Source: Opitutales bacterium
GTDB taxonomy: Bacteria; Verrucomicrobiota; Verrucomicrobiia; Opitutales; T3Sed10-336
Assembly (NCBI GenBank): GCA_007130045.1
Contig: SLTG01000021.1
Span: 355 to 64,354, forward strand
Reading direction: 5' to 3'
Length of the DNA stretch: 64,000 nucleotides
Part shown: positions 41,843 through 57,347 of the stretch, in pieces
How positions within the stretch are numbered: position 1 is the first letter of the stretch
Layout of the letters: each line of letters opens with the position of its first letter
Translations under genes and position numbers: made by a program
The notes under the pieces: model-generated
Databases searched by the model: none
Told to the model about the DNA's origin: nothing
The model's input: only the letters and a program-made list of their open reading frames with translations

Positions 41843-41909
41843 GGACCAATGGATTGATAACAGTGGCTAATTCGGTTGAAGCGGAATTTCTTACTCTTTT
41901 ACAGATGGG

Positions 41910-43277
41910 TTATTTCGCGGCCTTCAACATCTCTTCCAGTCGCTTGCGCATCTCCTCGAGTTCCCTGGCATAAGCGGGGTTGTCCACTTGATTCGTCTTC
42001 TCCGTTGGGTCCACCTGCAAGTCGAAAAGCTGTTCGTAGTCCCACTCCGGCCAATAAGCGTATTTAAGGTCCCGGCGCACAACAGCCTGTGATGCGGGTA
42101 TGCGGTTCTTGTCAGTGATGGTTGGATGTTCATACAAGAATTCATCGCGCCAACCCGAAGGATCATCGACAAGGTAAAGCCGAGCCAGATCTTCGCCCTG
42201 GATCCCCTCGGGAACAGTCAGTCCGGCGGCGGCGAGAATGGTAGGCGCCAAGTCGATGTTCAACACCATTTCATCCCGCTTGATCCCACGTTCCTCCGCC
42301 GGCAAACGGGGGTCGTACACAATCAGGGGTACGCGGATGGACTCCTCATACGGATACCACTTATCAGCCAGCCCGCGATCGGCGTGAAAGTAACCATTGT
42401 CTCCCATGAAAATGATCAACGTGTTTTCGTACACCCCCTGATCTTTAAGCTCGGTGACGAGCCGGCCGACCGCTTCATCAAGCTCCGTGATCAAACGAAA
42501 GTAATTGGTCATGTATTCCTGGTATCGCTCCGGCGTATCAAAGCGCCAGTGGAAGCGGATGCGGCCCTCGTTGGACTCCTGGGAGAGAAATTCCGGCAGC
42601 GCTTCAAGATATGATGGGGCCATTTTCACCGACTCGGGTATCGTCACCCCTTCGTAGTATTTGGCGCTCCAATCCTGAGGCAGGTATTGCTCCGGCGCCC
42701 GGTCTTCAGCGTGGGGGGCAAAATAGGACAGGCTCAGGATAAACGGCTGACCGGTTGGGCGTTCTCTGAGAAACTCAAGCGAGTCCTGCGCGTTTCGCTC
42801 GGTGACGTGAATACGTTCTCCGTCGATTTCATACCAATGACGGCCATGATACGAACGGACGAAATCAAAGTCGTCTTCTCGAATGGAGCCGACATGATAT
42901 TTCCCCACAAACCCACTCCAATAACCGGCGGACCGCATGACCGCGGGATACGTCTCGGAAAACGCCTTCGGGGCAAGCTCCTTGCCGAACCGGTCGATCC
43001 CGTGCCGCGACATGTACTGGCCGGTTAGAATCGATGCCCGGCTGGTCATGCAGATGCTGGTGGTGACAAACGCATCGGTAAAATGCACGCCGGTTTCCGC
43101 GAGTCTATCCAGGTGTGGCGTGTGAATAAATTCGCTTCCCCCGGCGCCGAACGCGTCCCAACGCTGATCGTCCGAAACCAGGACCACGACATTCATCGCC
43201 TCGGAACTTGCTTTGCCGCCGCAAACGCACGCGGTTACAGCCGTTGCGAGCAGAGTGAGAGCAGACAGTTTCTTCAT
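41910..43277 (-). CDS. Sulfatase (S1, Cys-type)
   Basis: SDDQR, TPHLDRLA, SICMTSRASILTG, GKYH, APH, GDNG and YEESIRVPL. Confidence 0.93.
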   Translation of the reverse strand: MKKLSALTLLATAVTACVCGGKASSEAMNVVVLVSDDQRWDAFGAGGSEFIHTPHLDRLAETGVHFTDAFVTTSICMTSRASILTGQYMSRHGIDRFGKELAPKAFSETYPAVMRSAGYWSGFVGKYHVGSIREDDFDFVRSYHGRHWYEIDGERIHVTERNAQDSLEFLRERPTGQPFILSLSYFAPHAEDRAPEQYLPQDWSAKYYEGVTIPESVKMAPSYLEALPEFLSQESNEGRIRFHWRFDTPERYQEYMTNYFRLITELDEAVGRLVTELKDQGVYENTLIIFMGDNGYFHADRGLADKWYPYEESIRVPLIVYDPRLPAEERGIKRDEMVLNIDLAPTILAAAGLTVPEGIQGEDLARLYLVDDPSGWRDEFLYEHPTITDKNRIPASQAVVRRDLKYAYWPEWDYEQLFDLQVDPTEKTNQVDNPAYARELEEMRKRLEEMLKAAK

Positions 43278-43283
43278 GATTGA

Positions 43284-44681
43284 TTATTCTCCTTTTTCGT
43301 TCGGCATTTCCCCGTCCAACGGGAGCCAGGTGTCGATGCGGCGCGACAGATGCCTCACACGCTCCGGTTGTTCATCCGCGAGATTGTTCTTCTCGTGCGG
43401 ATCATCTTTTACATTGTACAATTCGATCCCCTCATGCACAGCAACAATCGAATCTCCGACGAAAACTTCAGGAGCAAGGCCGGGGTCGGGCAGGATCAGC
43501 TTCCAGTCCCCCTCGACAATCCACCGATAATAGAGTCCCTTGAGCGGTTCGTCGATCGGAGCCGGCATGTCGTGCCCGTATATGTCTCCAAACACAGCAT
43601 CTCTCTCCTCCACCGCCCTCCGATTCAGCAGATCGATTCCCTGCGAATCAGCCGATGGCTCCAGCCCCGCCGCCCGCAAAATCGTCGGTTTCAAGTCGAT
43701 GCTGCCGGCCAGGTTTTCCTCGTCCCTAAAGGGTTTCACCTTTCCCGTCCAGCGGACCATAATCGGCGTTCGCACGCCTCCTTCATGCGGACTGCGCTTC
43801 GATCGCGGAGCGTATCCCTCCTGTCGCCAATCCTCCGGCAGCCCCTCCATCTCCGGTGTGAGCTGGATCCACCCGTTGTCACAAACATAAAGAATGACGG
43901 TGTTGCCGCCCATCCCGTTCTCATCGATGTAATCGACCAACTGGCCACAAGTTTCATCGAACCACTCGACCATCGCATAATACCGGGCCAGTTCCATCGG
44001 CCTGCCCTCAAGCATATACTTATTCAGCAGGCGCTCCGGCGGGTTGTGTGGCGTGTGCGGCAGGAAGGGAGCGTACCAGACGAAAAAGGGCTTCTCCTCT
44101 CCCGCGGCATGCTCGATGAATTCAAAAATCGGCTCCATTCCATCCCGGCCAATCCTCAACCCCGCATCGCCATGCCGGGCTCCGCGGGCGGGATCGCCGT
44201 GTGTCATCCCGTGCGTGAACCCGCCGACGCTGTAATTGCCTTCCCACCACTTGCCTGACTGATGCGAAAGGTACCCCTCCTCCCCCAACCGCCGCGCGAT
44301 TGTCGGCAGTTCCGCCATGCGGTCAACATACGGCTGGTTCGCCTTCGGACGTCCACCCGAGGCGCGCCGCGCCTCAGGATCGGGGTCATTGCCCGTGATT
44401 CCGTGCTCGTGCGGATACATCCCCGTCGCGATCGACGCCAGCGACGGCCGGCACAGACTTGAGGGCACATAACCTCTCGTCATCAACAGGCTCTCCTCCG
44501 CCAACCGGTCCAGGTGCGGGGTTTGAATGTGCTCGTGACCCATAAAACCATAATGCCACCAGGACTGGTCATCGGAGATAATCAGCACGATATTCGGCCG
44601 ATCCGCGGCTTCCGCTTCGCTCACTAAGCCGAAGACGATCAAAAACGACAAGGAAACACCTGCACGGCAAAGGTTTATCAT
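43284..44681 (-). CDS. Sulfatase (S1, CxPSL variant)
   Basis: RPNIVLIISDDQ, LCRPSLASIATG, GKWWEG, PHTPH, CDNG and EGGVRTP. Start placed at ATG 44681 because it gives a signal peptide. Confidence 0.9.
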   Translation of the reverse strand: MINLCRAGVSLSFLIVFGLVSEAEAADRPNIVLIISDDQSWWHYGFMGHEHIQTPHLDRLAEESLLMTRGYVPSSLCRPSLASIATGMYPHEHGITGNDPDPEARRASGGRPKANQPYVDRMAELPTIARRLGEEGYLSHQSGKWWEGNYSVGGFTHGMTHGDPARGARHGDAGLRIGRDGMEPIFEFIEHAAGEEKPFFVWYAPFLPHTPHNPPERLLNKYMLEGRPMELARYYAMVEWFDETCGQLVDYIDENGMGGNTVILYVCDNGWIQLTPEMEGLPEDWRQEGYAPRSKRSPHEGGVRTPIMVRWTGKVKPFRDEENLAGSIDLKPTILRAAGLEPSADSQGIDLLNRRAVEERDAVFGDIYGHDMPAPIDEPLKGLYYRWIVEGDWKLILPDPGLAPEVFVGDSIVAVHEGIELYNVKDDPHEKNNLADEQPERVRHLSRRIDTWLPLDGEMPNEKGE

Positions 44682-45045
44682 AAAATCAGGTCTGTACAAG
44701 ACAGGCGTCATCAACAAAGTACTCCGAATAATTAACGATATGAGCGTTTCACTTCCCATTCATCAAATCGGCTAGTGAATCGCGCCATGCTTCCACATTC
44801 AAACAAATAACATACCCCTTCAGTCATTTCGCGGTATTTTCATTCACATCATCGGATTTTTCACTTCCAGTGTCTAATCTGAAATTTCATATTCACGCGC
44901 CATCGTGCCAGCCCTTCGCTGATTCACGGTCGACCGTCACGGTGGATACCGGTAAAAATCGCGGCAGTGGCACGGACTATTTCCATATGCCGTCATTCGA
45001 ATCGGGGCAATAAGGCGGGAATCATGGAACAGAAAGAATGTTGCA

Positions 45046-45075
45046 CTGTCCAAGCCTGTCCAAGCCTGTCCAAGC
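45046..45075. repeat. 10-bp direct repeat x3 (CTGTCCAAGC)
   Basis: Three perfect tandem copies in the divergent intergenic region upstream of the 45263 gene cluster. Confidence 0.95.
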
Positions 45076-45159
45076 CACCGTTTATTTTCATGTGCCGTCA
45101 TTCTGAATCCTGGATACCGGGCCGCAAAAAATCCCGTGTATCTCGGGGAATAATTCCTC

Positions 45160-45189
45160 TTGACTCGCTGCATCGGCCCTTTCTATCGT
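45160..45189 (+). promoter_or_regulatory. Candidate sigma70 promoter (TTGACT-N18-TATCGT)
   Basis: Near-consensus -35 and -10 elements about 75 bp upstream of ATG 45263. Confidence 0.35.
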
Positions 45190-45262
45190 CTATTCTGCGG
45201 CTGTCCTTAAAGTGAAAGTTGCCGGTAACCACGTTTAAGTTCGAAAATCCCGACCAGTTCTT

Positions 45263-46891
45263 ATGAAATTATCCTTTTGCACCGTCCTCTTGGCGATCGT
45301 CTGCGGCGCCCTGCTTTTCCATCCTTCCACGAAGGCATCCGCCGCCGTGGCCAGCCCCGATTACGAAAGGGAGAATTGGCCCGAAGTCCCCAAGCTGGTC
45401 TGGGCCAAGCCCGGTGAAAGCGGCGACTTCAACGATCCCGCAAACTGGCTGAAGAATGGGCAAGTATCCACTCGGGCGCCCGACCGCGACACGGATGTCG
45501 TCCTTCCTCCCGCACCGGGGCGATACCGCGTCAACGCCGGGCGCGATCGCGAAGTCCGCCATCTCACGGTCGGCGAAAACGCCGAGATTCGGGGCGTACA
45601 CCGCAATGAGCTGGAAATATGGGGCAATGCCTGGGTGAAGGATGGAGGCTGGGTGGAATACATCTCCATTCGTGGGCCGAAGAATACCTTTTTCCGGATG
45701 GACAGCGCCGAGTTTCCGACGAAGGAGAACGGCCTCACCTTTCTCGGCGGGCGATCCCGGACGTCCAAACCGCAGAGTCGTGGCCGGATCTCGCACAAAT
45801 TCGAGATCGCCAAATACGGCGATGGTTCGGTGGAGCTCATTGGCAACATCGGGGTTGGCGATGAGATCATGGTGCAGCACGGAAGAGCGATCATAAGCGG
45901 CGAGCTCCGCTGGTCGGGCGTAACCGACAAAGGCGCTATCGAGGTTTTCGACGGCGCGGTTCTCGAATTGCAGTCCGGCGCCACGATCGCGCCATTCCTA
46001 AGCAAGAACGGTAAAAACGTGTACAACGTCAACATCTACCGCGGCGGCATGCTTCAAGGGGGCTCGCCCGAACGCCCGCTGACCTCCGACGCCTACGTCC
46101 GGCTCGGCTACGGCTCCGACAACTCCGTGCAAGGCGAAAGCGGTCTCTTCGCCGCGCGAGGCTCGATTATCCGGGTCCACAGCAGCGATCCCGAAAACGC
46201 GCGGCTTGTCTTCCCCTCGATCACCGGCACGCCGGGATTCCACGACGGCGACGGCAATCTCCTCGCCGATACTGAAACTCCCGCCCGCGGCCCCGGCGGC
46301 ATCGTGCTCGACCTCGCCGGTGATGTCGATTTGCACGGAGCCTTCTTCGATTACGTCAGCGAGGGCGGAATTCGCCTTATTAACGCGGAAGTCCGCGACC
46401 AGTGGCGCGAGGTTGAATTTGGCGAGAATAACGCCGGTTCGCCCGACCGGCTGTTTGCCCAGCTCGAGGTGGATGCGGACGTCTATTATCATGAGCGGCT
46501 CGACGGCGCGAGCGAGTTCGCGCTGACGAGGAGGGCGCGGCAGACAATGGACGAGTTCATTCAACAACAGGATCCCTATCGGATCTCAGTCTCGCCCGAA
46601 TCCGTCCAAATGGGGGAAGCCTTTGATCCACACCGCGGTGGACGCACGTTCAAAAGGCCGGAGGCTGTCATCTTTAAAGACCCCATCGAGGTTTCCATCG
46701 AGGTCGAGGTTCCGGGAGCCGCGATCCACTACACAACCGACGGATCGGAAGTCTCACACGAGTCTCCCCGTTACACCGAACCGCTGCGGATCGAGCAAAC
46801 GACCCGCCTTAATGTCCGCGCTTACGCCGAAGGCAAATCCCCGAGCATGCCGGCCGCCTTCACTTATGTTTTCGAGGATGAAACCGATTAA
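45263..46891 (+). CDS. Secreted protein with C-terminal Fn3-associated/CHB_HEX_C-like domain
   Basis: Signal peptide, WAKPGESGDFNDPANW motif, a beta-rich body and C-terminal AAIHYTTDGSEV...YTEPLRIEQTTRLNVRAY. Confidence 0.8.
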   Translation: MKLSFCTVLLAIVCGALLFHPSTKASAAVASPDYERENWPEVPKLVWAKPGESGDFNDPANWLKNGQVSTRAPDRDTDVVLPPAPGRYRVNAGRDREVRHLTVGENAEIRGVHRNELEIWGNAWVKDGGWVEYISIRGPKNTFFRMDSAEFPTKENGLTFLGGRSRTSKPQSRGRISHKFEIAKYGDGSVELIGNIGVGDEIMVQHGRAIISGELRWSGVTDKGAIEVFDGAVLELQSGATIAPFLSKNGKNVYNVNIYRGGMLQGGSPERPLTSDAYVRLGYGSDNSVQGESGLFAARGSIIRVHSSDPENARLVFPSITGTPGFHDGDGNLLADTETPARGPGGIVLDLAGDVDLHGAFFDYVSEGGIRLINAEVRDQWREVEFGENNAGSPDRLFAQLEVDADVYYHERLDGASEFALTRRARQTMDEFIQQQDPYRISVSPESVQMGEAFDPHRGGRTFKRPEAVIFKDPIEVSIEVEVPGAAIHYTTDGSEVSHESPRYTEPLRIEQTTRLNVRAYAEGKSPSMPAAFTYVFEDETD

Positions 46892-46957
46892 TCCCTCGAT
46901 TCCTAAGCGACCGTGGCCTTGCCCGGATCGTTTCGCATACTTTGCGGGAGAATTCCA

Positions 46958-48967
46958 ATGACAACGAATGTTAGAACCGTCCTTTCCGTCCTGCTTTTTT
47001 CAGTGCTCGCGCATTTCCCGTTAAAGGCGGTAATCAACGTCGGCCTGCAGCCGGCAGACCTCTTCGAACGTTACGAAACCGTCCTTACCGGCGAAATCGA
47101 ACGGGTGGACGAGGAAGCCGGCGGCTTTTTCCTGCGGGTGACCGCGTTACACAAGGGCGAAACCCCGGAGGTCGGCGAGATCATCGAAATCTCGGCGGTA
47201 GACGCCATGGCAGAGGCTCTCGCGGACCAGGTGGACCCGATCGTCGACATCGCTCCCGGCAAGCCAGTCGCCGCCTTCGTCGGCATGCGCCAGCGCCGGG
47301 CCGAGGACCAGCTGCTCTTCTACGCCGGGGGCTTCTACCTCGGCACCCGGGTGTCGGATTCGCGATGGAACTGGACCGATGGAGACACTCAAATGACCGG
47401 CGTGGACGGCCAACCCGTGCCGACGATGGCCGGGACTTGGAACGGATCGACGCCTCAACTGAATCACATGCTTGAGGATTTGGCCCGCGGCGAAGCGTAT
47501 TTCCCCCGGCGCGGATACGCCGCGTTTAAGGAGGACATTCTGATCGACCAACTTGATGACACCGTGCGGGGCATCGCACTTTACGATCTATATGGCAATG
47601 GGCTTCCCGACATCTACGTCTCCTCGCCCGACGGCGATCGCGTGTACCTGCAGATGGCGCCGCTCGAATTTATCGACGCCACGGAATGGCTTGGCCTCGA
47701 GCAGGCAAGCGTGAGCATCGACGTTGCCGACTTTGATCTCGATGGCATCCCCGATTTGCTCGTCGGCGGCACCCTGCTCCGCGGCTCCGCCAACAGATCA
47801 GGGCAGCACGGCTTCACGCCCGTGGAGTCTTTCCCGCACGACGACGAGGAACGGGCCGCGCTCAAGGCCGCGGCGTTTATCGAAGCTGACGGGGACGGCT
47901 ACCCTGATGTCATCGTATCCCTCGAAGGAGGCGGTTTGCGTCTCTACCGCAATCCGGGCGAATCCGGCGGAGCTTTCACGGATATCACCGAGCATGCCGG
48001 CCTGGACCGGACGGAAGCCGGGGCCGGTGGCAACGGCTATTTCACGCTCGGCGATTGGACCGGGGACGGCCGAACCGATATCCACTACGCCGCCGGGCCA
48101 GGATTTCTGTTGATTCAGGATAGTGAGGGTCGCTTCGCGCCGCATCCGGACATGCCGGAATTGCGTTTCACGTCCGGCCCGGATGATGCACCCGGTCTGA
48201 CCGGCGCCGGCGCCTTCGCCCCGATCATCGGCTCCGGCCGGTTCGATCTCATCATCCCCGTGGCGAGCAGCTGGCATGTGATCGAGAATCGCAATGGCCA
48301 GCCGATCGACGTCACCGAGTACGGCAACGAGATCAACGAAGGTTCGTTTCTGCACCTTTCCACCGTCGCTTCGGACCTCACCCTGGATGGCAATGTGGAC
48401 ATCTATACGATCAGTCGCGCCCAGTACGGACACAACCGATTCATCATCAATCGCGGTTACGGCTCATTTATGCTCGCTACCGTGCATCGCGCTTACGACA
48501 AGATGTTCTCCGGTCCGTCGCAGGAACTGGGGGGCTGGGCTCTCGCGACCGGGGATGCCAATGGCGATGGGCAACCCGATATTCTGCTCGGCAACGAACA
48601 CGGACATGTGGTTCTCATTTTGAACGACACGCTGTCGTATCGAGAACCGGTGGAGCACCCGACCGACGACGTCGCGCGTATGCTCCAGGCAGGCGTACTC
48701 GCCGTCACGGTTGAAGGCCCGCGCGGCGTCGTCGGCGCCATCGTCCAGCTCGAAACTCCAGAGGGTGCCACAGTCGATATGCGGTTCATTGGTGGCAATA
48801 ACGCAGCCGGCAGCCGAGGCCCTGACGAGGCCATCTTCGGCGTGCGTAAGCCCGGCGACTACCTCGTTCGCGTGCGCTACGCCGACGGCCACGAACGCAC
48901 CTGGCCGGTGGAGATTTCGCCCGCAACCCAGGCGATCGCGCGCTTGACGGCAACTCGATCCGACTGA
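46958..48967 (+). CDS. FG-GAP/VCBS-repeat protein with ASPIC/UnbV-like C-terminus (CRTAC1-like)
   Basis: RBS GGGAG before ATG 46958 and a signal peptide. Repeated Ca-binding-type DxDxDGxxD motifs (DFDLDGIPD, EADGDGYPD, DWTGDGRTD, DLTLDGNVD, DANGDGQPD). C-terminal GVVGAIVQL...AIFGV...VRVRYADG. Confidence 0.85.
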   Translation: MTTNVRTVLSVLLFSVLAHFPLKAVINVGLQPADLFERYETVLTGEIERVDEEAGGFFLRVTALHKGETPEVGEIIEISAVDAMAEALADQVDPIVDIAPGKPVAAFVGMRQRRAEDQLLFYAGGFYLGTRVSDSRWNWTDGDTQMTGVDGQPVPTMAGTWNGSTPQLNHMLEDLARGEAYFPRRGYAAFKEDILIDQLDDTVRGIALYDLYGNGLPDIYVSSPDGDRVYLQMAPLEFIDATEWLGLEQASVSIDVADFDLDGIPDLLVGGTLLRGSANRSGQHGFTPVESFPHDDEERAALKAAAFIEADGDGYPDVIVSLEGGGLRLYRNPGESGGAFTDITEHAGLDRTEAGAGGNGYFTLGDWTGDGRTDIHYAAGPGFLLIQDSEGRFAPHPDMPELRFTSGPDDAPGLTGAGAFAPIIGSGRFDLIIPVASSWHVIENRNGQPIDVTEYGNEINEGSFLHLSTVASDLTLDGNVDIYTISRAQYGHNRFIINRGYGSFMLATVHRAYDKMFSGPSQELGGWALATGDANGDGQPDILLGNEHGHVVLILNDTLSYREPVEHPTDDVARMLQAGVLAVTVEGPRGVVGAIVQLETPEGATVDMRFIGGNNAAGSRGPDEAIFGVRKPGDYLVRVRYADGHERTWPVEISPATQAIARLTATRSD

Positions 48968-48973
48968 AATCCA

Positions 48974-50617
48974 ATGGTACCCGACATCACACCGCAGCTC
49001 GCGGTAGTTCCGATCCTCATCAACGCCGGTGCGGCGGCGCTGCCCGCCCTGATTGCGGGCGTAGCCAGTGTGGCCGCGCTCATCTTTAAGCCGCGCCAAC
49101 TCGTGCGCGCCTGTCGCCGGCATCCCGGTCGCGCTCTTGGCGTGTTGTTCGGAATCGCGGGGCTTACCGCCTTGATCGCATTCTGGCCGGCTGGTGATGC
49201 AACGGCTACAGGTACGGGGCGCCCGGCCACTTCCGCCAGCGCCTCCACCACCGATTGGACGCGTGTCGCGCTCGAAATCATCCGCGAGGAACAGCGCCGG
49301 CAATCCCGCGGACCCGCAGTGACGCAACAGGTTTCGGCTAACGCCGAAGGCGGCACGGTTGACGTCGCGACCAGCGACGTTGACGCCCAGCCCGCAATCT
49401 TCCGTGGCGGCATCGAACGCACGGGGTACGCCGGAGGTCCGGCACCCCTCGGCCTGCAACCGCTCTGGGAATACGAGGAGCCATTCGCGATGTTCCTCTC
49501 CTCGCCGATTGTTCATGCCGATCGGGTCTATGCCGCATGGACCCTGCTGGATCCGCCAAACAGCTATGGCGGCCTGATCGCTCTCGATGCCGCAACCGGT
49601 GACCTGCTCTGGGAGATCGACGAGCGCGACGACGGAGAACCCTTCGTAGGCATCTTCAGCTCCCCCGCGGTCAGTGCCGACGGCCGCTACGTCGTGATCG
49701 GCCAGGGTCTGCACTATGATGCGAACTGCGACTTGATCTGCGTTGACACACAGACGGGTGAAATCAAGTGGGTGGCGCCAACGCTCCTCCACCTCGAAAG
49801 TTCCCCGGCGATTTATGGCAACCTGGTGGTCATCGGCGCGGGCGCCATCGAAGTGGGCAGTGACCGCCAACCGGAGGGACATCCGGGGTACGTGTTGGCG
49901 GTGGATCTCGAAACGGGCCGCGAGGTTTGGCGGCACGACATCGCGGATCCCGAAAGTTCCCCCGCCGTGATCGACGGCATAGCCTATATCGGAAGCGGAT
50001 TCAACGGCAACGCCGTCGTCGCCCTCCGCACCGAGTCTGAAGATGCCTTGCAGGCCAGTGGAAAGGACCGTGAGCTCTGGCGGCGCGACACCCCCTATCC
50101 CGCCCTGGGCCCGATCACGATCGCTGGCAATCTCGTGCTTGCCGGCTGCGGGAATGGAGATTTCGTCTTTAGGGCGCAGAATCCCGCTGGCGCCGTGCTC
50201 GCCCTCGATCGCGATAACGGTGAGGTTCGCTGGGAAACCGCACTGCCCGATACGGTGCTTGGTGCCATTGCCGTGCGCGACAACCTTGCCATCTGCCCGG
50301 TGCGTAACGGCGAGGTCATCGCCCTTGATCTCGACGATGGTGCCATCGTCTGGCGCCAACGGATCAACGGCTCCGCCGCCATTCTCGGCGGTCCCGCGGT
50401 CACCGAGGATCTCGTTTACGCGGTCAGCCAGGATGGTTATCTCGCCATCCTGGAGTTGCAGGATGGCTCCGTGCTGGAAAGACACTATTTGAACTCCGAA
50501 AGGCGGCCGGGCACACTCGGGCTGTCGGTAAGCTCACCCTTCGTGAGCGACGGCCGCGTTTATATCGGCAGCGAAACCGGCGGCTTGCGCGCCTTCGACG
50601 GAAGCACGTCACGGTGA
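48974..50617 (+). CDS. Membrane-anchored PQQ-like (BamB-type) beta-propeller protein
   Basis: Two N-terminal hydrophobic segments, FRGGIERTG and repeated SSP..../ALDxxTGxxxW blades. Confidence 0.88.
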   Translation: MVPDITPQLAVVPILINAGAAALPALIAGVASVAALIFKPRQLVRACRRHPGRALGVLFGIAGLTALIAFWPAGDATATGTGRPATSASASTTDWTRVALEIIREEQRRQSRGPAVTQQVSANAEGGTVDVATSDVDAQPAIFRGGIERTGYAGGPAPLGLQPLWEYEEPFAMFLSSPIVHADRVYAAWTLLDPPNSYGGLIALDAATGDLLWEIDERDDGEPFVGIFSSPAVSADGRYVVIGQGLHYDANCDLICVDTQTGEIKWVAPTLLHLESSPAIYGNLVVIGAGAIEVGSDRQPEGHPGYVLAVDLETGREVWRHDIADPESSPAVIDGIAYIGSGFNGNAVVALRTESEDALQASGKDRELWRRDTPYPALGPITIAGNLVLAGCGNGDFVFRAQNPAGAVLALDRDNGEVRWETALPDTVLGAIAVRDNLAICPVRNGEVIALDLDDGAIVWRQRINGSAAILGGPAVTEDLVYAVSQDGYLAILELQDGSVLERHYLNSERRPGTLGLSVSSPFVSDGRVYIGSETGGLRAFDGSTSR

Positions 50618-53600
50618 TGAGCGATTCACCCTGGATTCTCCCGCTCACGTTGGCGCATGACGTGAGTTTGGTCGGCGGTAAAGCATCGAATCTCGCCCAA
50701 CTCATCAACTCCGGTCTCCCGGTTCCATCGGGGTTCGCCATTACCACCGCTTCCTTCCATGCGTGGTGCGATGCCGGAGACAATGGTATTCCAGAACCGG
50801 TCCGCGAAGCGATGATCGCCGCTTATCGCACGTTGGGCGGGCCGCAGGTCGCGGTGCGCTCTTCCGCGACAGCCGAGGATGGCAAGGAAGCCTCCATGGC
50901 TGGACAATACGAGACGATTCTCGGCGTGGAGGGCGAGGACGCGCTGTGCGCGGCGGTTTGTCGCTGCTGGCAGGCGTCCGACTCAGCCCGCGTCACGCAC
51001 TATCTCGCGAAGCATGCCCCCGGCATCGAGACGGTTTCGCTCGGACTTGTCGTTCAGCCCATGATTTCAGCCGATGCGGCGGGCGTGCTCTTCACGGCGA
51101 ATCCCCGCAATGGGCGCCGTAACGAGATGCTGCTTGAAGCCGCCTGGGGACTTGGCGAAGCTGTAGTGTCGGGGAAGGTCCAACCCGACGTTATCACACT
51201 GGATCACGACACCGGGCATGTGCTCGACGCGTCGATCGCGGAAAAGTCCGCGACATACGATCCCGCGACCGGCGAAATGAGCCCGCTTCCCCCTGAGCGG
51301 CGCTCGGTACCGGTCCTCGGCAGCGCCGATGTCGCGGCGCTTGCGCGTTGGGGCCGGCGCGTTGAAGATATCTTTGGCGAACCTCAGGACATCGAGTGGG
51401 CACTCCATCGTGGCCGCGTTTACCTCCTTCAATCTCGGCCCATCACCACGCTGGCGATTGCCGCGGCGCGTGAGGAGACACTGAACGAAACACGCGCCCG
51501 ACTGATTACCGCCCTCGAAACGGGACAGGGTCCTTGGATCGTGCATAACCTGGGCGAGACGGCGCCTCGGCCTACTCCGCTAACATGGACCGTTTTGCAG
51601 CGGTTCATGTCCGGGCAGGGTGGATACGGAAACCTCCAGCGCAAAGTGGGTTTCACTCCCGGTCCGTCCGTCGAGCGTGAAGGGTTCCTCGATCTGATCG
51701 GGGGGCAGATTTATATGGACGTTAGCCGCGGTCCCGAAATGTTCGGCGCAGGTTTTCCGTTTCACTACGATATCGAAAAGCTGCGGGCGGATCCGGATGC
51801 GGCAAATGGGCCGCCGACTCTGCCCGCGGGATCGATCGCGGCATTGTGGCGGGCAGGCCGGGTTTCCCGCTCGGTCGAACATCGCCTCGAAACGTATGCC
51901 GCCGATTTCGATCACCGGCTCGAAAGCGACATCATCCCGGCATTTGCAGCCTGGGTCGCGGAAGAGCGGAAGCGCGATCCGACGAAGCTCAGCCCGGCTG
52001 AATGGATCGATCTCTGGCGCATTCGCGAACAGCGGACCATGGACGACTTTGCTTCCAGCGCTCTGCTGCCGAGCGTGCTTTGCGTCTGGACGACGGACCG
52101 CTTTCGGCAATTCCTCGAGACCCGTTTTTGGGACGACGAGCCGGACGCCCTCCTGGCCACGCTCTCCGTCCCCGTCCGCCACGATTCCACTATCAAATCG
52201 AACTCAGGTTTGTGCGAGTTGGCCGAGGGCCGGAACAGCCTCGAAAACTGGCTGGGAGAGCATGGTCATCGTGCGCCGGAGGAGTTCGAACTCGCGACGC
52301 CCCGCTGGTCCGAACGGCCTGAAGCCATTGCCGGACTGGTTGAGCACATGCGCGGCCGCGAGGATCCGGCGATGCGGCATGACCAGCGCCAGCAAGCGGC
52401 GCGGGATTGTCTCGCCTCCCTTTCGCGGCGCCTCTCTTCCCGCGACTCCGCCACGCTCCAGACCCTGGCCGACCGGCTTTCGCGTTACCTGCCTTACCGC
52501 GAAGACGGGAAGCACCACCTGATGCTCGGCTATGGCCTGCTGCGCGATCTTGCCCTGGAAGCCGCGCGCCGTCTCGACCTCGACGCGGAGGTTTTCCTGC
52601 TTACGCCCGCGGAGATCGAGCACGCGCTTGAAACCGGCTACGCGCCTCACCACCTTATCAACGAGCGTCGCCTGCGCCGGGAAGCTGAGAAAGAGCTCGC
52701 ATTGCCGACACTGCTGACGCGCTTGGAAGTCGAGAATATAGGGGACCCGCCGCCCGTGGATTTCACTGTGGAACGATGGAAGTCAGTACCGCTCGCCGGA
52801 GGTCGCGGGAGTGGACCCGTGCGCATCCTGAACGCGCCGGATCAGATTGACGCGGGCGAGCGTGGCTTCGTCCTCGTTTGTGCCACAACCGACCCGGGAT
52901 GGACGCCGCTCTTCGCGAGCGCCGAGGCCGTTGTTGTGGAGCGTGGCGGCAGCTTGTCGCACGGCGCGGTCGTCGCGCGCGAAATGGGTGTGCCGGCCGT
53001 GACCTTGCCGGGAGCGACGCGGCTGTTGCGCGAGGGCGAAACGGTCACCGTCGATGGCCGGCATGGCTGGGTCGCACGCGGCGCCCCGCCTTCGTCCGCT
53101 TCTGACGAGGCTGGTGCAGCGGATGACGAGCCAATCCCCCGCGAACTCCAGCCACCGCCCCCCGGCGACGGCGAGGAGCAGGCCGCACGCTGGCGCCGTA
53201 TTGGTTTTTCCGTTTGGGGCGTGTTTCTTGCCGCCTTTTTCCTGCTCCCTGCGCCGTGGCTTCAGTACCCGGCAATCCAAACAGTGGACCTGCTCCTCTG
53301 GCCGCTGGTGGCCACCTGGGGCAAAGTGGCAACGGTCGCGATTCTCGCCGCGGTCACGGCCACTGTAATACTGGTCGGCCAGCGCGTGCTCAACGACCAT
53401 GCACGGCTCGTAATCGCCAAGCAGCGCTGGCAGCGACTGCAGGCCCGGGCCCGGACGTTGCCCGAGGACGCCCCGCGACGGAAACAACTGCTCGCCTGCG
53501 GCGCGGGAGTGCAGAAGCGCCTGACTCTCGCGGCGTTTACTCCCCTCGCCATCCTGCTGGGGCCGATGGTGCTTTCGTTCATGTGGCTTATGGAACGGAT

Positions 53601-54228
53601 CGATCCGCTCGCCTGGAATCCATCGCCCGGCAGCAGCGCCGCGATCGTGGCGCTGGTCGATGGCGACCATCTTGAGCCGCTGACCATCGAGCTTTCCGAC
53701 TCGTTGCAACTCGCCCCCCATAGCTCTTTCGAGCAACAGGTGCCGCCCGTGCGCGAAACCCTTGAAGCGCTTCGGCAGCGCTGGCAGGCCGCGCCCTCGG
53801 GCGACAACAGCTTGCCTTGGGATGTTCGCGCCGCCGCCAGGCGCACACGTGCCGAGTTGCTTGACGACTTGCGCTCCTTCCTTGCGCAGCCGGTGCCGCC
53901 GCAAACGGTTGCGTGGACTGTTGATCTCCCGGAGGAACGGGGACGGTTTCCTGTTGTGATCCGTACAAGCGGAATGGATCCCGTCCATTTCAACCTTCTC
54001 GCCGGGGACGCGGCTCCCCCTTCGCCACCCATCGCATTCACGAGCGAGTCAGCGCCTATCCGCGAACTCAGCGTCGAATACCGCGAAGCCCGCATTCAAG
54101 ATGACCGAGTGTTCGCGACTCCGTTTTCTCGTTTCGGATGGGCTTGGGACGTGGGCTGGCTCGGCGTCTATCTGCTCGTCTATCTCCCTGTCATGGTCGT
54201 CGTGCGGCGCGCGCTGCGACTGCCGTGA
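50617..54228 (+). CDS. PEP-utilising-family dikinase (rifampicin phosphotransferase/PigC architecture) fused to a DUF106/EMC3-like membrane domain
   Basis: ATP-grasp motifs VGGKASNL, VAVRSSATAED..EASMAGQYET, WGLGEAVVSG, PQDIEW and LQSRPITT. Central RPH-like domain (HGHRAPEEFELATPRWSE). Phospho-His domain TDPGWTPLF..GGSLSHGAVVARE. C-terminal TM/coiled-coil/TM...GWLGVYLLVYLP. The ATG overlaps the upstream stop (TGATG). Confidence 0.9.
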   Translation: MSDSPWILPLTLAHDVSLVGGKASNLAQLINSGLPVPSGFAITTASFHAWCDAGDNGIPEPVREAMIAAYRTLGGPQVAVRSSATAEDGKEASMAGQYETILGVEGEDALCAAVCRCWQASDSARVTHYLAKHAPGIETVSLGLVVQPMISADAAGVLFTANPRNGRRNEMLLEAAWGLGEAVVSGKVQPDVITLDHDTGHVLDASIAEKSATYDPATGEMSPLPPERRSVPVLGSADVAALARWGRRVEDIFGEPQDIEWALHRGRVYLLQSRPITTLAIAAAREETLNETRARLITALETGQGPWIVHNLGETAPRPTPLTWTVLQRFMSGQGGYGNLQRKVGFTPGPSVEREGFLDLIGGQIYMDVSRGPEMFGAGFPFHYDIEKLRADPDAANGPPTLPAGSIAALWRAGRVSRSVEHRLETYAADFDHRLESDIIPAFAAWVAEERKRDPTKLSPAEWIDLWRIREQRTMDDFASSALLPSVLCVWTTDRFRQFLETRFWDDEPDALLATLSVPVRHDSTIKSNSGLCELAEGRNSLENWLGEHGHRAPEEFELATPRWSERPEAIAGLVEHMRGREDPAMRHDQRQQAARDCLASLSRRLSSRDSATLQTLADRLSRYLPYREDGKHHLMLGYGLLRDLALEAARRLDLDAEVFLLTPAEIEHALETGYAPHHLINERRLRREAEKELALPTLLTRLEVENIGDPPPVDFTVERWKSVPLAGGRGSGPVRILNAPDQIDAGERGFVLVCATTDPGWTPLFASAEAVVVERGGSLSHGAVVAREMGVPAVTLPGATRLLREGETVTVDGRHGWVARGAPPSSASDEAGAADDEPIPRELQPPPPGDGEEQAARWRRIGFSVWGVFLAAFFLLPAPWLQYPAIQTVDLLLWPLVATWGKVATVAILAAVTATVILVGQRVLNDHARLVIAKQRWQRLQARARTLPEDAPRRKQLLACGAGVQKRLTLAAFTPLAILLGPMVLSFMWLMERIDPLAWNPSPGSSAAIVALVDGDHLEPLTIELSDSLQLAPHSSFEQQVPPVRETLEALRQRWQAAPSGDNSLPWDVRAAARRTRAELLDDLRSFLAQPVPPQTVAWTVDLPEERGRFPVVIRTSGMDPVHFNLLAGDAAPPSPPIAFTSESAPIRELSVEYREARIQDDRVFATPFSRFGWAWDVGWLGVYLLVYLPVMVVVRRALRLP

Positions 54229-54312: not shown

Positions 54313-55815
54313 TTAGCCTGATCTCCGAAATGCATAATCTCTAAGTCGCTTCCACCAACTGGTCCGGCTTCCCAGCGAAATGATGATTGCCAGCAGAAAG
54401 AGCAGCGCAAAGGGCCTGGTCATAAATGGCAGCAGCGACCCGTCATGAACCGTAAGGGCACGGCGCAGGTTCTCGTCGAGGAGGGGCCCAAGGATCAGCC
54501 CGAGAATCAGCGGAGCCGCGGGATATTTCATTTCGGTGAGCAGGTAATAAATCAGACCGATCCCCAGCATGATCCAGACGTCAAACAAGCTGAGGTTCAA
54601 CGAATAGGCCCCAATCACACAGAGAACGGCGATGATCGGCATAAATATCCCGCGCGGAATGCTGAGGGCCTTTGCCACCACTCGCGTCAGCAACAAACCC
54701 CACGCCGACATGATGCAGGCGGCCACCAGCAGCATGGCGCCGATCTGGTAGATGAACCCGGGTGACTCGACGGCAAGCATCGGGCCGGGTCTGATCCCGT
54801 GCAGCCACAGCGCGCCCAACAGTACGGCGGTCGGTGGACTGCCCGGCACGGCAAGTGTCAACAGCGGGATCAACGCTCCGCCAATGGCCGCATTGTTGCC
54901 GGTCTCAGCCGCCAGAACCCCTTCATAAGAACCTTTGCCAAACTCCTCCGGATGTTTGCTTAACTTCCGCGCCACCCCGTAAGACCCCCAACTCGCAATG
55001 TCCTCCCCTACTCCGGGAATCGCCCCGATGCTTGTGCCGACGGCTCCCGAACGGAGCGAGGCCGGAATCAGTTTCTTGAAGTCCTTCCAGGTGGGAAGGA
55101 TGCGTCCTGATTCAGCAATTACCACGTGCTTCGCATCCGGGGTTTTCATCGTCCGGATAATTTGCGGGATTCCGAAAACCCCAATCATAGCCGGCACCAG
55201 GGCTATTCCTGTCAACAGCATCGGCGTCTCAAAGGTGAACCGAGCGTATCCGTGGAGGGGATCGATACCGACCGTTGAGAGCAGAATTCCCAACACCCCG
55301 GCGATCCATCCCTTGATCGGCCAATCCTGCGAGGTAATCGAACCACAAATCAAAATGCCGAACAACGCGAGCAGAGAAAATTCCACGGCGGTGAATCGCA
55401 GGGCCAACCGGCTGATCCAGGGCGCCAATGCCATGAGAATAATCAGCCCGAAAATCGTCCCCATCAGAGATCCAACAGTCGCGTAGCCCTTGGCCCTCCC
55501 TCCTTCCCCTTTGAGCGCCAATGGATACCCATCCATAGCCGTGGCCGCTGCGGAAGCGGTGCCCGGTATGTTCAACATGATCGCCGTAAACGAACCGCCG
55601 TAAATAGCTCCCACGTAGATCCCCAGCAGAACAATCAACGCCGCCTGCGTATCCAGTCCGTAGGTCACTCCCGTCAACAACGCGATGGCCAGGGTTGCCG
55701 TCAAACCGGGAAGCGCTCCGACCAGGATCCCCAGTACCGTGGCTCCGGCGAAGATCAGCAACGTCATCGGCGTCAATAACGCCAGGACTTCTTTGAAGAA
55801 TGTTACGATCTCCAT
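54313..55815 (-). CDS. tctA: Tripartite tricarboxylate transporter large permease
   Basis: GALPGL, YGGS..AIMLNIPGT, DGYPLA, ETGNNA, PLLTLAVPGS and GIRPGP. Confidence 0.95.
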   Translation of the reverse strand: MEIVTFFKEVLALLTPMTLLIFAGATVLGILVGALPGLTATLAIALLTGVTYGLDTQAALIVLLGIYVGAIYGGSFTAIMLNIPGTASAAATAMDGYPLALKGEGGRAKGYATVGSLMGTIFGLIILMALAPWISRLALRFTAVEFSLLALFGILICGSITSQDWPIKGWIAGVLGILLSTVGIDPLHGYARFTFETPMLLTGIALVPAMIGVFGIPQIIRTMKTPDAKHVVIAESGRILPTWKDFKKLIPASLRSGAVGTSIGAIPGVGEDIASWGSYGVARKLSKHPEEFGKGSYEGVLAAETGNNAAIGGALIPLLTLAVPGSPPTAVLLGALWLHGIRPGPMLAVESPGFIYQIGAMLLVAACIMSAWGLLLTRVVAKALSIPRGIFMPIIAVLCVIGAYSLNLSLFDVWIMLGIGLIYYLLTEMKYPAAPLILGLILGPLLDENLRRALTVHDGSLLPFMTRPFALLFLLAIIISLGSRTSWWKRLRDYAFRRSG

Positions 55816-56298
55816 CTAAGGAAGGGGAATTCGCGCCAAATGTTCGAATACAATGCCAATGGCGGTGGAAACAATCGCCGAGATCGAAAGAATCTTCCAC
55901 CATGCCGTCGCCTTGAAGAGGAACATAAAGGCCACCAGAAATAAAAAACTGGCCAAAATGAAATGAACGCGCCCGAGCAACCCGAATACATAGACCATGA
56001 GAAGAAGGGCGGCCAGAGCGCTTCGTCCGGAAGCCGGATCGGCGATCGCTGCCTTCAGCCGCGAAAAATCCTCGTGCTTCCAGGCTCCTCCTTCCTGAAA
56101 AGCGTGGAATGAAAGAGCGCTGCCCAGCAAAAACAGGACGATCGCGGCGGCGGCGGGCACCAGCCCCGGAGCCGTGTACCACCCGTCACGTTGAACGACG
56201 CTCAAATCCCAGCCAAGCTTGAGGCTCAGCGCGAATGCCGCCAACCCCAACGCGGCCAGCATAATGCCTGTAATGAAATCCGCTTTGCGCAACCACAT
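55816..56298 (-). CDS. tctB: Tripartite tricarboxylate transporter small permease
   Basis: 4-5 TM segments, APGLVP and C-terminal FEHLARIPLP; abuts tctA. Confidence 0.85.
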   Translation of the reverse strand: MWLRKADFITGIMLAALGLAAFALSLKLGWDLSVVQRDGWYTAPGLVPAAAAIVLFLLGSALSFHAFQEGGAWKHEDFSRLKAAIADPASGRSALAALLLMVYVFGLLGRVHFILASFLFLVAFMFLFKATAWWKILSISAIVSTAIGIVFEHLARIPLP

Positions 56299-56315
56299 TG
56301 ATTTGTTCCGCGGAA

Positions 56316-57347
56316 TTACGGTCTGGCGATTCCATATCTCTCCGGCGAGTGCCGGGCAAGTTGCTCGTCGTATAGCAGCCAGGTCAGCCTGCTCTCTCTC
56401 TCGGCAAAAAGGGCGGACGCCTCCTCTCCCGAATAACCAAAAAGTTCGGAATGGCTCGCCTCGCCGAATTGTCTGATTTCATCCGAGTCCATGGCGCGCT
56501 TGAAGGCCCCCTCGATAGTCTCCAGAATTTCCGCAGGGGTATCCGCCGGCAAAGCGAACCCGATGTACTGGCGGAGCGGAAAATGATCCTTTAACTCAGG
56601 GAGCGGTCCGCTAATCGGCGGCAGTTCGCCGATTCCTTCGTATCGACGCGGCTCCGTCTCCATGACGGCAAGAGGGCGGAGGTGTCCGGACCGCAGGAGT
56701 TCGACCTGTTCGCCCAGACCGGTCAGGACTACATCCACTTCGCCGGATAGGGCCGCCACCTGCGACGGATGACTTCCCGGATAGGAAATCCAGCGGACCT
56801 GCAACCCGGCCGCCTTCGACATAACGAGGTATTGCTCGTGCCAGACGGTTCCGGGAAATGCCGAAGCCATTCGGATTTGGTTCGGCCGGTCGCGAATAGC
56901 CGCAATCAGCTCCTCCAATGTATGATAGGGAGAATCAGCCGGTACCGACAAAATTCCCGGAGTCCCGCAAATCAGGAAGTAGTGCCAGTCCCGCGAGGTG
57001 GTCGAGTGAGCGCCGAACACCGGCATGGCCAGAGCGCCCTCCGACATGCCAAACCAGGTATGTCCGTCACGCCGGGCATTCCATACATGATTCGCCGCCG
57101 AACCGCCCTGGGCTCCGGGTATGTTGAGCACGGATATGGTCGCGCCCAGTTCTCTTTCCATCACGTTCGCCATCGTTCGATTGGCCAAGTCCGTCGATCC
57201 GCCGGGCGAAGCAAACACGGCAACATTAATTGTTTTGCGCCCGGGCCATTCTCCGGCGTCCCGCCCGTTCGGTTCGGAATCGCATCCCCCGAGAAACAGG
57301 CCAATAAATAGGGTGGTTATTACAATGTAATGGGAGAGCGTTTTCAT
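56316..57347 (-). CDS. tctC: TTT substrate-binding lipoprotein (Bug/TctC)
   Basis: Lipobox LGGC, WPGRKTI..VFASPGGSTD, NIPGAQG, DGHT and ALSGEVD. Confidence 0.9.
   Translation of the reverse strand: MKTLSHYIVITTLFIGLFLGGCDSEPNGRDAGEWPGRKTINVAVFASPGGSTDLANRTMANVMERELGATISVLNIPGAQGGSAANHVWNARRDGHTWFGMSEGALAMPVFGAHSTTSRDWHYFLICGTPGILSVPADSPYHTLEELIAAIRDRPNQIRMASAFPGTVWHEQYLVMSKAAGLQVRWISYPGSHPSQVAALSGEVDVVLTGLGEQVELLRSGHLRPLAVMETEPRRYEGIGELPPISGPLPELKDHFPLRQYIGFALPADTPAEILETIEGAFKRAMDSDEIRQFGEASHSELFGYSGEEASALFAERESRLTWLLYDEQLARHSPERYGIARP

Follow-up and report, generated by a model that had tools for sequence, protein, structure and literature searches.

A dikinase fused to a DUF106/Ylp1-like membrane domain, encoded next to a beta-propeller gene in Opitutales and related bacteria

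Two protein families meet in the gene described here, which lies in a stretch of 64,000 nucleotides (nt) of contig SLTG01000021.1 from an Opitutales bacterium (hereafter the window) and codes for a dikinase joined to a membrane domain resembling the Oxa1 superfamily. The first family comprises small-molecule dikinases such as rifampin phosphotransferase (RPH), PigC/RedH/HapC and HpeHI, which have in common with the window's protein the order ATP-grasp domain, central acceptor domain and swivelling phosphohistidine domain, together with the motif GGxxSHGAxxARE. The characterised relatives are soluble enzymes acting on small molecules (PMC4844700; PMC12167813), with rifampin as the acceptor of RPH (PMC4844700) and hydroxyphenylethanones and related phenolics as the acceptors of HpeHI (PMC12167813). 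The second family is DUF106 (PF01956, EMC3_TMCO1), represented by archaeal Ylp1 (MJ0480; PDB 5c8j), TMCO1 and EMC3; PMC5868721 and 10.1101/2020.12.20.422553 present it as a family of archaea and eukaryotes whose members act as passive, energy-independent insertases. Bacterial YidC (PF02096, 60KD_IMP) has the same superfamily fold, and Oxa1-type insertases are described in PMC11047089 as having a hydrophilic groove that is exposed to lipids and lets them scramble.

The membrane domain of the window's protein has in common with Ylp1, TMCO1 and EMC3 the core motifs and a predicted core with its N-terminus outside and its C-terminus inside (N-out/C-in), but the fusion differs from them in being bacterial, in being preceded by an enzyme of 860 amino acids (aa) and an extra helix, and in carrying an immunoglobulin (Ig)-like and helical insert of 186 aa between the second and third transmembrane helices of the core (TM2 and TM3). 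Moreover, it stays under the Pfam gathering score, its likeness to these proteins being known from sequence and structural model. Unlike RPH, PigC and RedH, the fusion is membrane-integrated, scores under the equivalog cut-offs and takes a separate place in the dikinase tree, inside a clade of Planctomycetes-Verrucomicrobia-Chlamydiae (PVC) bacteria and Poribacteria, so that nothing speaks for naming it a rifampin resistance enzyme. With YidC it has in common the insertion of extra elements between the last two core helices, but no sequence-level match, and the YidC of the genome itself is separate. The initial annotation of the window knew of no characterised protein with this fusion, and we likewise found neither such a protein nor any dikinase-insertase fusion or bacterial DUF106 in the full-text literature, a coverage outside which most subscription-journal papers fall. 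Both domains are known; in the literature covered, the fusion, the insert and the pairing with a propeller are undescribed.

The dikinase module

The initial annotation had placed the fusion gene at 50617-54228, and this frame was borne out with the sole correction that the gene may start 3 nt earlier, at the GTG codon at 50614; a database copy of the protein (P0002) of 1203 aa agrees with the ATG start. The GC content is level over the gene and its junction (0.63-0.67).

For the first 830 aa or so, the domain order of RPH/PigC and an intact histidine had been proposed, and both were confirmed. Pfam matched only PF01326 and PF00391 in this part, and no PEP-utilizers_C domain, the TIM barrel for phosphoenolpyruvate (PEP) or pyruvate, was found by Pfam in the fusion protein, which makes the domain order that of RPH/PigC. 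The catalytic histidine is residue 783 in GGSLSHGAVVARE (codon 52960-52962) and is invariant in the 25/25 aligned homologs. In the same alignment the ATP-grasp motifs are fully or almost fully conserved, and the invariant residues of the central domain include G334-G339, H552, R553, R629, E630 and K633. Pfam family PF27448 is carried by all 25 database homologs and, since the fragments that hold only the C-terminal part carry no Pfam call, we infer that it covers the central domain.

The closest solved structures found by phmmer were PDB 5hv2, 5fbs and 5hv1 (E about 5e-73), with aligned stretches at residues 59-281 and 537-820, while residues 282-536 of the central domain had no alignment to RPH structures. 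The depositors' molecule name for 5fbs and 5hv1-3 is 'Phosphoenolpyruvate synthase'; we take these entries to be the Listeria RPH. Among the NCBIfam models, those of PEP synthase subfamilies, RPH, RedH and PigC matched over three stretches, all far under their cut-offs. Accordingly, assignments to the rifamycin-inactivating phosphotransferases (NF041857, 319.5 vs 999 bits; NF000283, 211.3 vs 1700 bits), to the prodigiosin ligases PigC (NF052631, 279.9 vs 1300 bits) and RedH (NF052632, 301.6 vs 1350 bits) and to PEP synthase (NF005057, 285.6 vs 598 bits; TIGR01418, 268.6 vs 739.75 bits; no PEP-utilizers_C match) were rejected.

The DUF106/Ylp1-like membrane domain

The C-terminal part had been described in the initial annotation as a series of transmembrane helices with a basic coiled coil, an insert of about 190 aa and a final helix, on a pattern like that of DUF106 and Oxa1 proteins. 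As to the pattern, Kyte-Doolittle windows of at least 1.5 delimited four hydrophobic segments (863-881, 905-923, 972-990 and 1179-1197), the loop 927-972 is basic, with 11 K+R vs 3 D+E, and the insert measures 186 aa. The first part of the core consists of a periplasmic amphipathic helix, TM1 (905-923), a basic cytoplasmic coiled coil (927-971) and TM2 (972-990), and is preceded by the extra helix, called TM0 here.

The likeness to DUF106 was borne out by profile comparisons. The window's C-terminal 367 aa were aligned with 16 genome homologs into a C-terminal family profile (A2), and a search with hmmsearch of 177,635 distinct PDB sequences returned MJ0480/Ylp1 (5c8j) with E 5e-8 as the sole match under E 0.5; the match runs from the N-terminal helix via TM1 and the coiled coil through TM2, and a second, weak stretch lies on the last helix. 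In a test set of 218 open reading frames (ORFs) from 34 archaeal loci with a PF01956 gene, the profile matched 34/34 DUF106 ORFs (E 2e-13 to 9e-4) vs 0/184 other ORFs. The comparison of the two families by hhalign gave 95.5% in local mode (113 columns), 96.8% in global mode (181 columns, through the last helix, extending to template column 187/190) and 94.4% in another run. The motifs in common with DUF106 are LL(T/V)D(N/Q)xRL after TM1, P...(F/W)xW(L/M) in TM2 and (G/W)WLxxY in TM3. From these results we concluded that the C-terminal domain belongs, as a divergent member, to the DUF106 branch of the Oxa1 superfamily, and we consider this architecture and homology very probably correct.

Direct scans against family libraries gave nothing relevant. 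The C-terminal 374 aa matched in Pfam (E ≤ 1) only Nitroreductase (0.11) and PilJ (0.55), both at chance level, and matched 0 families of NCBIfam. No YidC of the PDB was among the matches of the C-terminal profile at E ≤ 10. A profile search restricted to near lengths gave no match at E ≤ 0.01 among 8000 scored candidates, where a later query with a single sequence gave 61, and this null result is probably due to the selection of candidates. In the automatic annotation of JGI, 5/61 C-terminal fragments are labelled 'uncharacterized membrane protein (DUF106 family)', and the nearest cluster in the ESM Atlas (score 0.83, which serves as a lead only) is a cluster of Planctomycetota in which 17% of the members have PF01956.

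The fold was modelled with AlphaFold2 for residues 838-1204, with a mean predicted local distance difference test (pLDDT) of 86.8 and a predicted template modelling score (pTM) of 0.73. The model runs through helices, a helical coiled coil, a beta domain with a helical hairpin and a last helix, in agreement with the hydropathy; the hairpin (about 1046-1091) is predicted to sit inside the Ig-like beta sandwich of the insert. The evidence on the fold rests on an exhaustive VIA-align search of 48,161 chains, which ranked chain 8 of PDB entry 7tut first for the window's domain (Z 7.9; root-mean-square deviation (rmsd) 4.1; 141 aligned; model residues 60-367) and also brought up the YidC of B. halodurans (3wo7_A, Z 6.4). 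Model residues 165-321 gave Z about 7 to the Ig-like domains of GH2 C-termini, macroglobulin and intimin. For a stand-alone relative of the domain encoded in a separate gene (locus L123; pLDDT 73.6), 7tut_8 was again first, with Z 10.9, rmsd 3.2 and 143 aligned, 2.7 units over the next match (YidC), and the rest of the top six includes YidC (Z 8.2), WRB/CAML 6so5_D (Z 7.5) and YidC 6y86_A (Z 7.4). Entry 7tut contains TMCO1 and, judging from chain length and the content of the entry, chain 8 is probably TMCO1.

The charge bias, with 11 K+R in the TM1-TM2 loop, 3 in the C-tail and 1 in each presumed periplasmic loop, would by the positive-inside rule place the dikinase, the coiled coil and the C-tail in the cytoplasm, and the TM0-TM1 segment and the insert in the periplasm, with the core N-out/C-in. 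TM0 thus allows a cytoplasmic enzyme to precede an N-out core. By this argument stand-alone forms, whose N-terminus is free, should do without TM0 and, in the alignment of fused and split forms, TM0 indeed has no counterpart in them.

Such split forms were found in four loci of Planctomycetota (L025, L123, L124 and L125), in which a soluble dikinase gene is directly followed by a separate DUF106-like gene. The stand-alone ORFs are 284-307 aa long in L123-L125 and 234 aa in L025 (4098-4802), and the sole Pfam match of all four is PF01956 (E 1.3e-5 to 5e-4). The proteins have TM1, the coiled coil, TM2 and a smaller beta insert, as well as TM3 in 3/4 of cases, and neither TM0 nor the hairpin of the insert is present in them. 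The occurrence of the dikinase and DUF106-like modules as a fusion in one lineage and as neighbours in another speaks for a joint function. In L025 the ORF stops before TM3 despite 94% identity to the L123 protein, which runs through TM3, and this early end could reflect a frameshift, a truncation or a fault of the assembly.

Distribution of the fusion and its propeller partner

The fusion is carried by homologs well beyond the window. In a search with residues 840-1204 of a collection of 5.8 billion proteins, 25 homologs were found, and 24/25 are fused proteins of 1178-1285 aa in which both Pfam domains of the dikinase are present; they come from four sources (ncbi, ena, jgi and lgn), and their taxon names include Opitutaceae. 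The whole fusion is also present in 16/80 kept loci of contigs sampled at one genome per species, some of these contigs being 0.8-3.9 Mb long; the 16 loci belong to Planctomycetota, Verrucomicrobiota, Lentisphaerales and one metagenome-assembled genome (MAG) labelled Anaerolineales. A profile search of 1.84 billion representatives returned 433 proteins at E ≤ 0.001, and the best 150 of them are full-length fusions or pieces of such. At the same time the fusion is rare, occurring in 6/201 sampled genomes of the window's phylum (window's genome counted) and in 5/201 sampled Planctomycetota.

This distribution bears on whether the fusion could have arisen as an assembly chimera or by read-through from one gene into the next. 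In favour of this, the window belongs to a draft genome in 146 contigs, and at two loci the gene is split into overlapping frames; against it, the 24 fused homologs come from independent assemblies, the 16 fused genome loci include the long contigs mentioned, the GC content does not change across the junction, and TM0 and the linker motif are conserved among the fused homologs in the C-terminal alignment. Chimeric assembly was therefore rejected, and we give it next to no probability. The two split genes (L005:453-4465 and L009:7971-11745) may be assembly frameshifts or pseudogenes.

A FastTree phylogeny was computed from 53 dikinase domains, namely ORFs with 650-1000 matched residues (19/71 loci, mostly archaeal split hits, were dropped), with midpoint root and with support values that are local and Shimodaira-Hasegawa (SH)-like only. 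The 14 fused rows form one clade (100), nested within a clade of 27 rows (100) together with soluble forms of Planctomycetota and Poribacteria, away from the actinobacterial group. The MAG labelled Anaerolineales (L001; Chloroflexota) has both a propeller gene and the fused gene. The position of its dikinase within the PVC clade points to mis-binning or recent transfer. A further, divergent relative in the window's phylum (genome G053, L122:1-2604; an 867-aa frame whose 5' end is open where the locus starts) joins the central domain straight to the membrane domain and matches the C-terminal profile with only E 1.6e-20 over positions 2-289. A PEP-utilizers His domain could not be recognised in this relative, which may represent a pseudo-enzyme or a variant with different wiring.

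Directly upstream of the fusion gene lies a gene for a PQQ-type beta-propeller protein, and its TGA (50615-50617) shares nucleotides with the beginning of the fusion gene. With this partner the conserved module comprises two genes in its fused form and three in its split form. A homolog of this partner is found directly upstream in 15/15 loci with upstream DNA, window counted; two further loci (L005 and L012) are cut there. The partner has two N-terminal hydrophobic helices, the first of which is highly conserved, with V11, P13, N17, G19, A21, L23 and P24 invariant in the partner alignment. A complex of the partner with the C-terminal domain was predicted with an ipSAE of 0.64 (runs 0.65, 0.64 and 0.64) vs at best 0.00 in three controls, the runs agreeing in at least 45% of contacts and the partner having a pLDDT of at least 78; in calibration, 58/80 solved complexes and 2/110 mismatched pairs had attained this ipSAE mark, counts that apply here only roughly because custom alignments were used. 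The predicted interface would involve, on the partner side, a helix before the propeller (92-103, with invariant W95 and A99) and propeller loops, and on the side of the insert the hairpin and sheet edges at 1044-1053, 1082-1089 and 1094-1102. The interface residues R1047, L1050, L1086 and W1101 are invariant in the alignment of 25 sequences.

The pairing recalls the eukaryotic endoplasmic reticulum membrane protein complex (EMC), as EMC3 with EMC1 also joins a DUF106-type core to a non-cytoplasmic PQQ-like beta-propeller. In contrast to the EMC, no EMC6/Elp1-like partner was seen, and the propeller partner is not EMC1-specific. Specific kinship with EMC1 was rejected because Beta-prop_EMC1_N scored 18.1 bits vs a cut-off of 34, amid stronger PQQ_2 matches. 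The resemblance to the EMC may be convergent.

Soluble dikinases of the sister clades, in loci of the Gemmataceae type, are preceded by larger propeller proteins (786-868 aa), in which a PQQ propeller is combined with 5-6 hydrophobic helices and a domain of about 200 aa, and whose N-terminus is signal-like. The leading helix of the hydrophobic block is similar to the conserved first one of the window's partner, with an AVVPxFV-like start in common. We rejected a hidden DUF106-like domain in the helices of L015, L016 and L018, as hhalign gave 0.7% against the profile of the window's family and 0.2% against the archaeal set.

Next to the propeller gene on its upstream side, the window codes at 46913-48967 (+) for a 684-aa FG-GAP/VCBS-repeat protein with a signal-like N-terminus. 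An FG-GAP gene stands upstream of the propeller gene in 6 loci (window, L002, L004, L007, L023 and L024), and a homologous ORF is found just downstream of the fusion gene instead in L003, L008 and L012, the L003 copy being confirmed as FG-GAP; this protein may be a third component. The surroundings in the window (40559-46891 and 54313-57347) code for a glycoside hydrolase of family 43 (GH43), two sulfatases and a protein with a CHB_HEX_C domain, all pointing to polysaccharide use, and a divergent TctC-TctB-TctA tripartite tricarboxylate transporter is encoded downstream of the fusion gene on the opposite strand. None of the GH43, sulfatase, CHB_HEX_C and TctABC genes is conserved with the module in the other loci. 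Long antisense frames lie opposite the propeller gene (48464-50485 (-), 673 aa) and the fusion gene (52783-53988 (-), 401 aa); comparable frames recur in GC-rich homologous loci and group together in an all-against-all comparison, and we took both to be non-coding shadows of the real genes. The coordinates of the module and its parts are given in Table 1.

Table 1. Positions of the fusion gene, its domains and related genes (window positions unless a locus is named)
Feature	Position	Strand	Evidence or remark
Whole fusion ORF	GTG 50614 or adjacent ATG 50617 to 54228	+	1204 aa or 1203 aa; stop codon 54226-54228 included
ATP-grasp nucleotide-binding domain PPDK_N (PF01326), residues 58-287	50785..51474	+	Pfam E 2.3e-73, 247.8 bits vs cut-off 27
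Central, presumed acceptor-binding domain, residues 288-748	51475..52857	+	From 537 onward aligns to RPH structures
Phosphohistidine swivel domain PEP-utilizers (PF00391), residues 749-818	52858..53067	+	Pfam E 8.9e-21; His783 codon 52960-52962
Cytoplasmic linker, residues 819-862	53068..53199	+	Variable acidic stretch, then conserved proline-rich motif, consensus PPPPG..ER (C-terminal alignment)
Extra transmembrane helix TM0, residues 863-881	53200..53256	+	Hydropathy; AlphaFold2 model helix 15-40; predicted to run from cytoplasm to periplasm
DUF106/Ylp1-like core, first part, residues 884-996	53263..53601	+	Profile match to MJ0480 residues 7-118, E 5e-8; hhalign
Periplasmic insert between TM2 and TM3, residues 993-1178, 186 aa	53590..54147	+	AlphaFold2 model; Ig-like beta sandwich
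TM3, residues about 1179-1201, motif GWLxVYLLxYLP, then short basic tail	54148..54216	+	Hydropathy; weak second hidden Markov model stretch to MJ0480 160-197
Partner gene, 547-aa protein, PQQ-type beta-propeller	48974..50617	+	Pfam PQQ_2 E 6.1e-38, 131 bits
Split module, L025	1355-4802		Dikinase gene, then DUF106-like gene
Split module, L123	7334-9476	-	Dikinase gene, then DUF106-like gene
Split module, L124	2696-6182		Dikinase gene, then DUF106-like gene
Split module, L125	4145-7619		Dikinase gene, then DUF106-like gene
Sister-clade propeller protein, L015	5532-7892
Sister-clade propeller protein, L016	5261-7867
Sister-clade propeller protein, L018	484-2943

A proposed coupled groove and the alternatives to it

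The explanation that in our view best accounts for these data, and that as a whole we hold to be rather probable, is a machine of three layers, enzyme, membrane and periplasm, in which the groove of the membrane domain is coupled to the enzyme. The cytoplasmic layer would be a small-molecule dikinase of the RPH/PigC/HpeHI type in which, by analogy with its relatives, the ATP-grasp domain would load phosphate from ATP onto His783 of the swivelling domain, and this domain would carry the phosphate to an acceptor in the central domain, giving AMP, inorganic phosphate and a phospho-product. TM0 would cross the membrane and lead into a three-helix core of the archaeal YidC type with its basic cytoplasmic coiled coil, and the Ig-like periplasmic domain with its hairpin is predicted to bind the membrane-anchored PQQ beta-propeller encoded just upstream. 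As to the substrate, we suggest tentatively, and with less confidence than for the machine as a whole, that the acceptor is a hydrophobic or amphipathic molecule resident in the membrane, and that the Oxa1-type groove accommodates its head or passes it toward the Ig-like/propeller module, the domain not being a general insertase. This reading of a coupled groove is favoured by the combination of small-molecule hydroxyl acceptors among the relatives and lipid scrambling by the insertase groove.

Several results weigh against this reading. Of the three Pfam models named in the initial annotation, PF01326 and PF00391 matched the window's protein, but the PF01956 model missed it at E ≤ 1, and the whole genome at E ≤ 10, and even the stand-alone relatives score 20.3-25.5 bits on it, just under the gathering score of 27.1. 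The proposed Foldseek comparison gave no PDB match at E ≤ 0.001 for either the window model or that of the split relative, and the Z of 7.9 with which VIA-align ranked 7tut chain 8 first, with YidC also present, lies in the middling range for helical models on the scale of the tool. The contact with the propeller is a predicted one, the confidence of a model given custom alignments. Further, no lipid, polyprenol or natural-product genes are conserved beside the module, the propeller gene and, in 6 loci, the FG-GAP gene being the only conserved neighbours. Lastly, the sister-clade dikinases pair with propellers with no DUF106-like domain nearby, one such genome being without any, so that the groove domain is not indispensable to that pairing; the pairing of kinase and propeller is older than the groove domain and independent of it.

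The same sister clades are what an alternative would build on, in which the membrane domain is a mere anchor or scaffold that places a detoxifying or catabolic small-molecule dikinase by a periplasmic binding module, the groove having no function. The related dikinases do work as soluble enzymes on small molecules, as PMC4844700 and PMC12167813 report. A mere anchor would, however, not be expected to keep the DUF106 core motifs and at least 20 invariant positions across phyla, nor to persist as a separate adjacent gene in the four split loci, and we regard this alternative as improbable.

A second alternative keeps the groove but gives it the work known from the family, so that the DUF106-like domain would be a dedicated protein insertase or assembly chaperone, for instance for the conserved N-terminal helical hairpin of the propeller partner or for another client, and the dikinase would regulate or accompany it. 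Members of the Ylp1 family insert membrane proteins according to PMC5868721, the first transmembrane helix of the partner is unusually conserved, and the basic cytoplasmic coiled coil, with which the family contacts client or ribosome, is retained. Against these points, a canonical YidC is encoded elsewhere in the same genome (PF02096, E 1.9e-56, contig C112), so that the DUF106-like domain of the fusion is not the housekeeping insertase; the confidently predicted contacts with the partner are periplasmic, with none between membrane helices; the N-terminus of the core is tethered to the 860-aa enzyme, and an insertase has no known need of a dikinase. The rarity of the module in the sampled genomes likewise fits an accessory function. 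A dedicated insertase thus seems to us quite unlikely, if a little less so than a mere anchor.

The span of the architecture from cytoplasm through membrane to periplasm, with its predicted periplasmic partner, would also suit a transmembrane signalling or mechanical device in the manner of FtsEX or MacB, in which a periplasmic ligand controls the dikinase or the motion of the swivelling domain drives periplasmic work, and the FG-GAP repeat protein gene upstream of the propeller gene in 6 loci is consistent with such a device. Nevertheless, no gene for a response regulator, an HPr-like protein or another phospho-acceptor protein is conserved beside the module, three single helices with a long, flexible and poorly conserved linker (819-845) would make a weak conduit of force, and the central acceptor-binding domain is strongly conserved, as for a true substrate site. 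We consider a device of this kind very unlikely.

The coupled-groove reading can be carried further, to a claim that we judge unlikely in its full extent: the fusion would be the first enzyme-coupled member of the Oxa1 superfamily, in which a membrane-embedded acceptor (a lipid, a polyprenol or another amphipathic hydroxyl compound) is phosphorylated at the cytoplasmic face and its head group is slid by the fused or adjacent groove to the periplasmic Ig-like/propeller receiver, as in a substrate-specific, chemically primed flippase. The DUF106-type YidC would then be native to PVC bacteria, or have been acquired by them long ago, and be paired with a lumen-side propeller as EMC3 is with EMC1.

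The locus in any case presents a bacterial lineage in which a clear DUF106 homolog shares one polypeptide with a phosphotransfer enzyme that consumes ATP, or is encoded right after it. If the groove handles the substrate or product of the kinase, the module would be a new coupling of cytoplasmic ATP chemistry to membrane transport and a natural example of the handling of lipids by an insertase, a capacity recently reported in PMC11047089; a domain that has kept the ability to insert proteins would instead be a second, specialised insertase alongside YidC and associated with an enzyme. In both cases the protein offers a tractable bacterial model of an Oxa1 domain of the archaeal and eukaryotic type, and His783, the groove and the interface of insert and propeller are defined targets in the search for the acceptor that RPH-like dikinases of this large, uncharacterised clade use.

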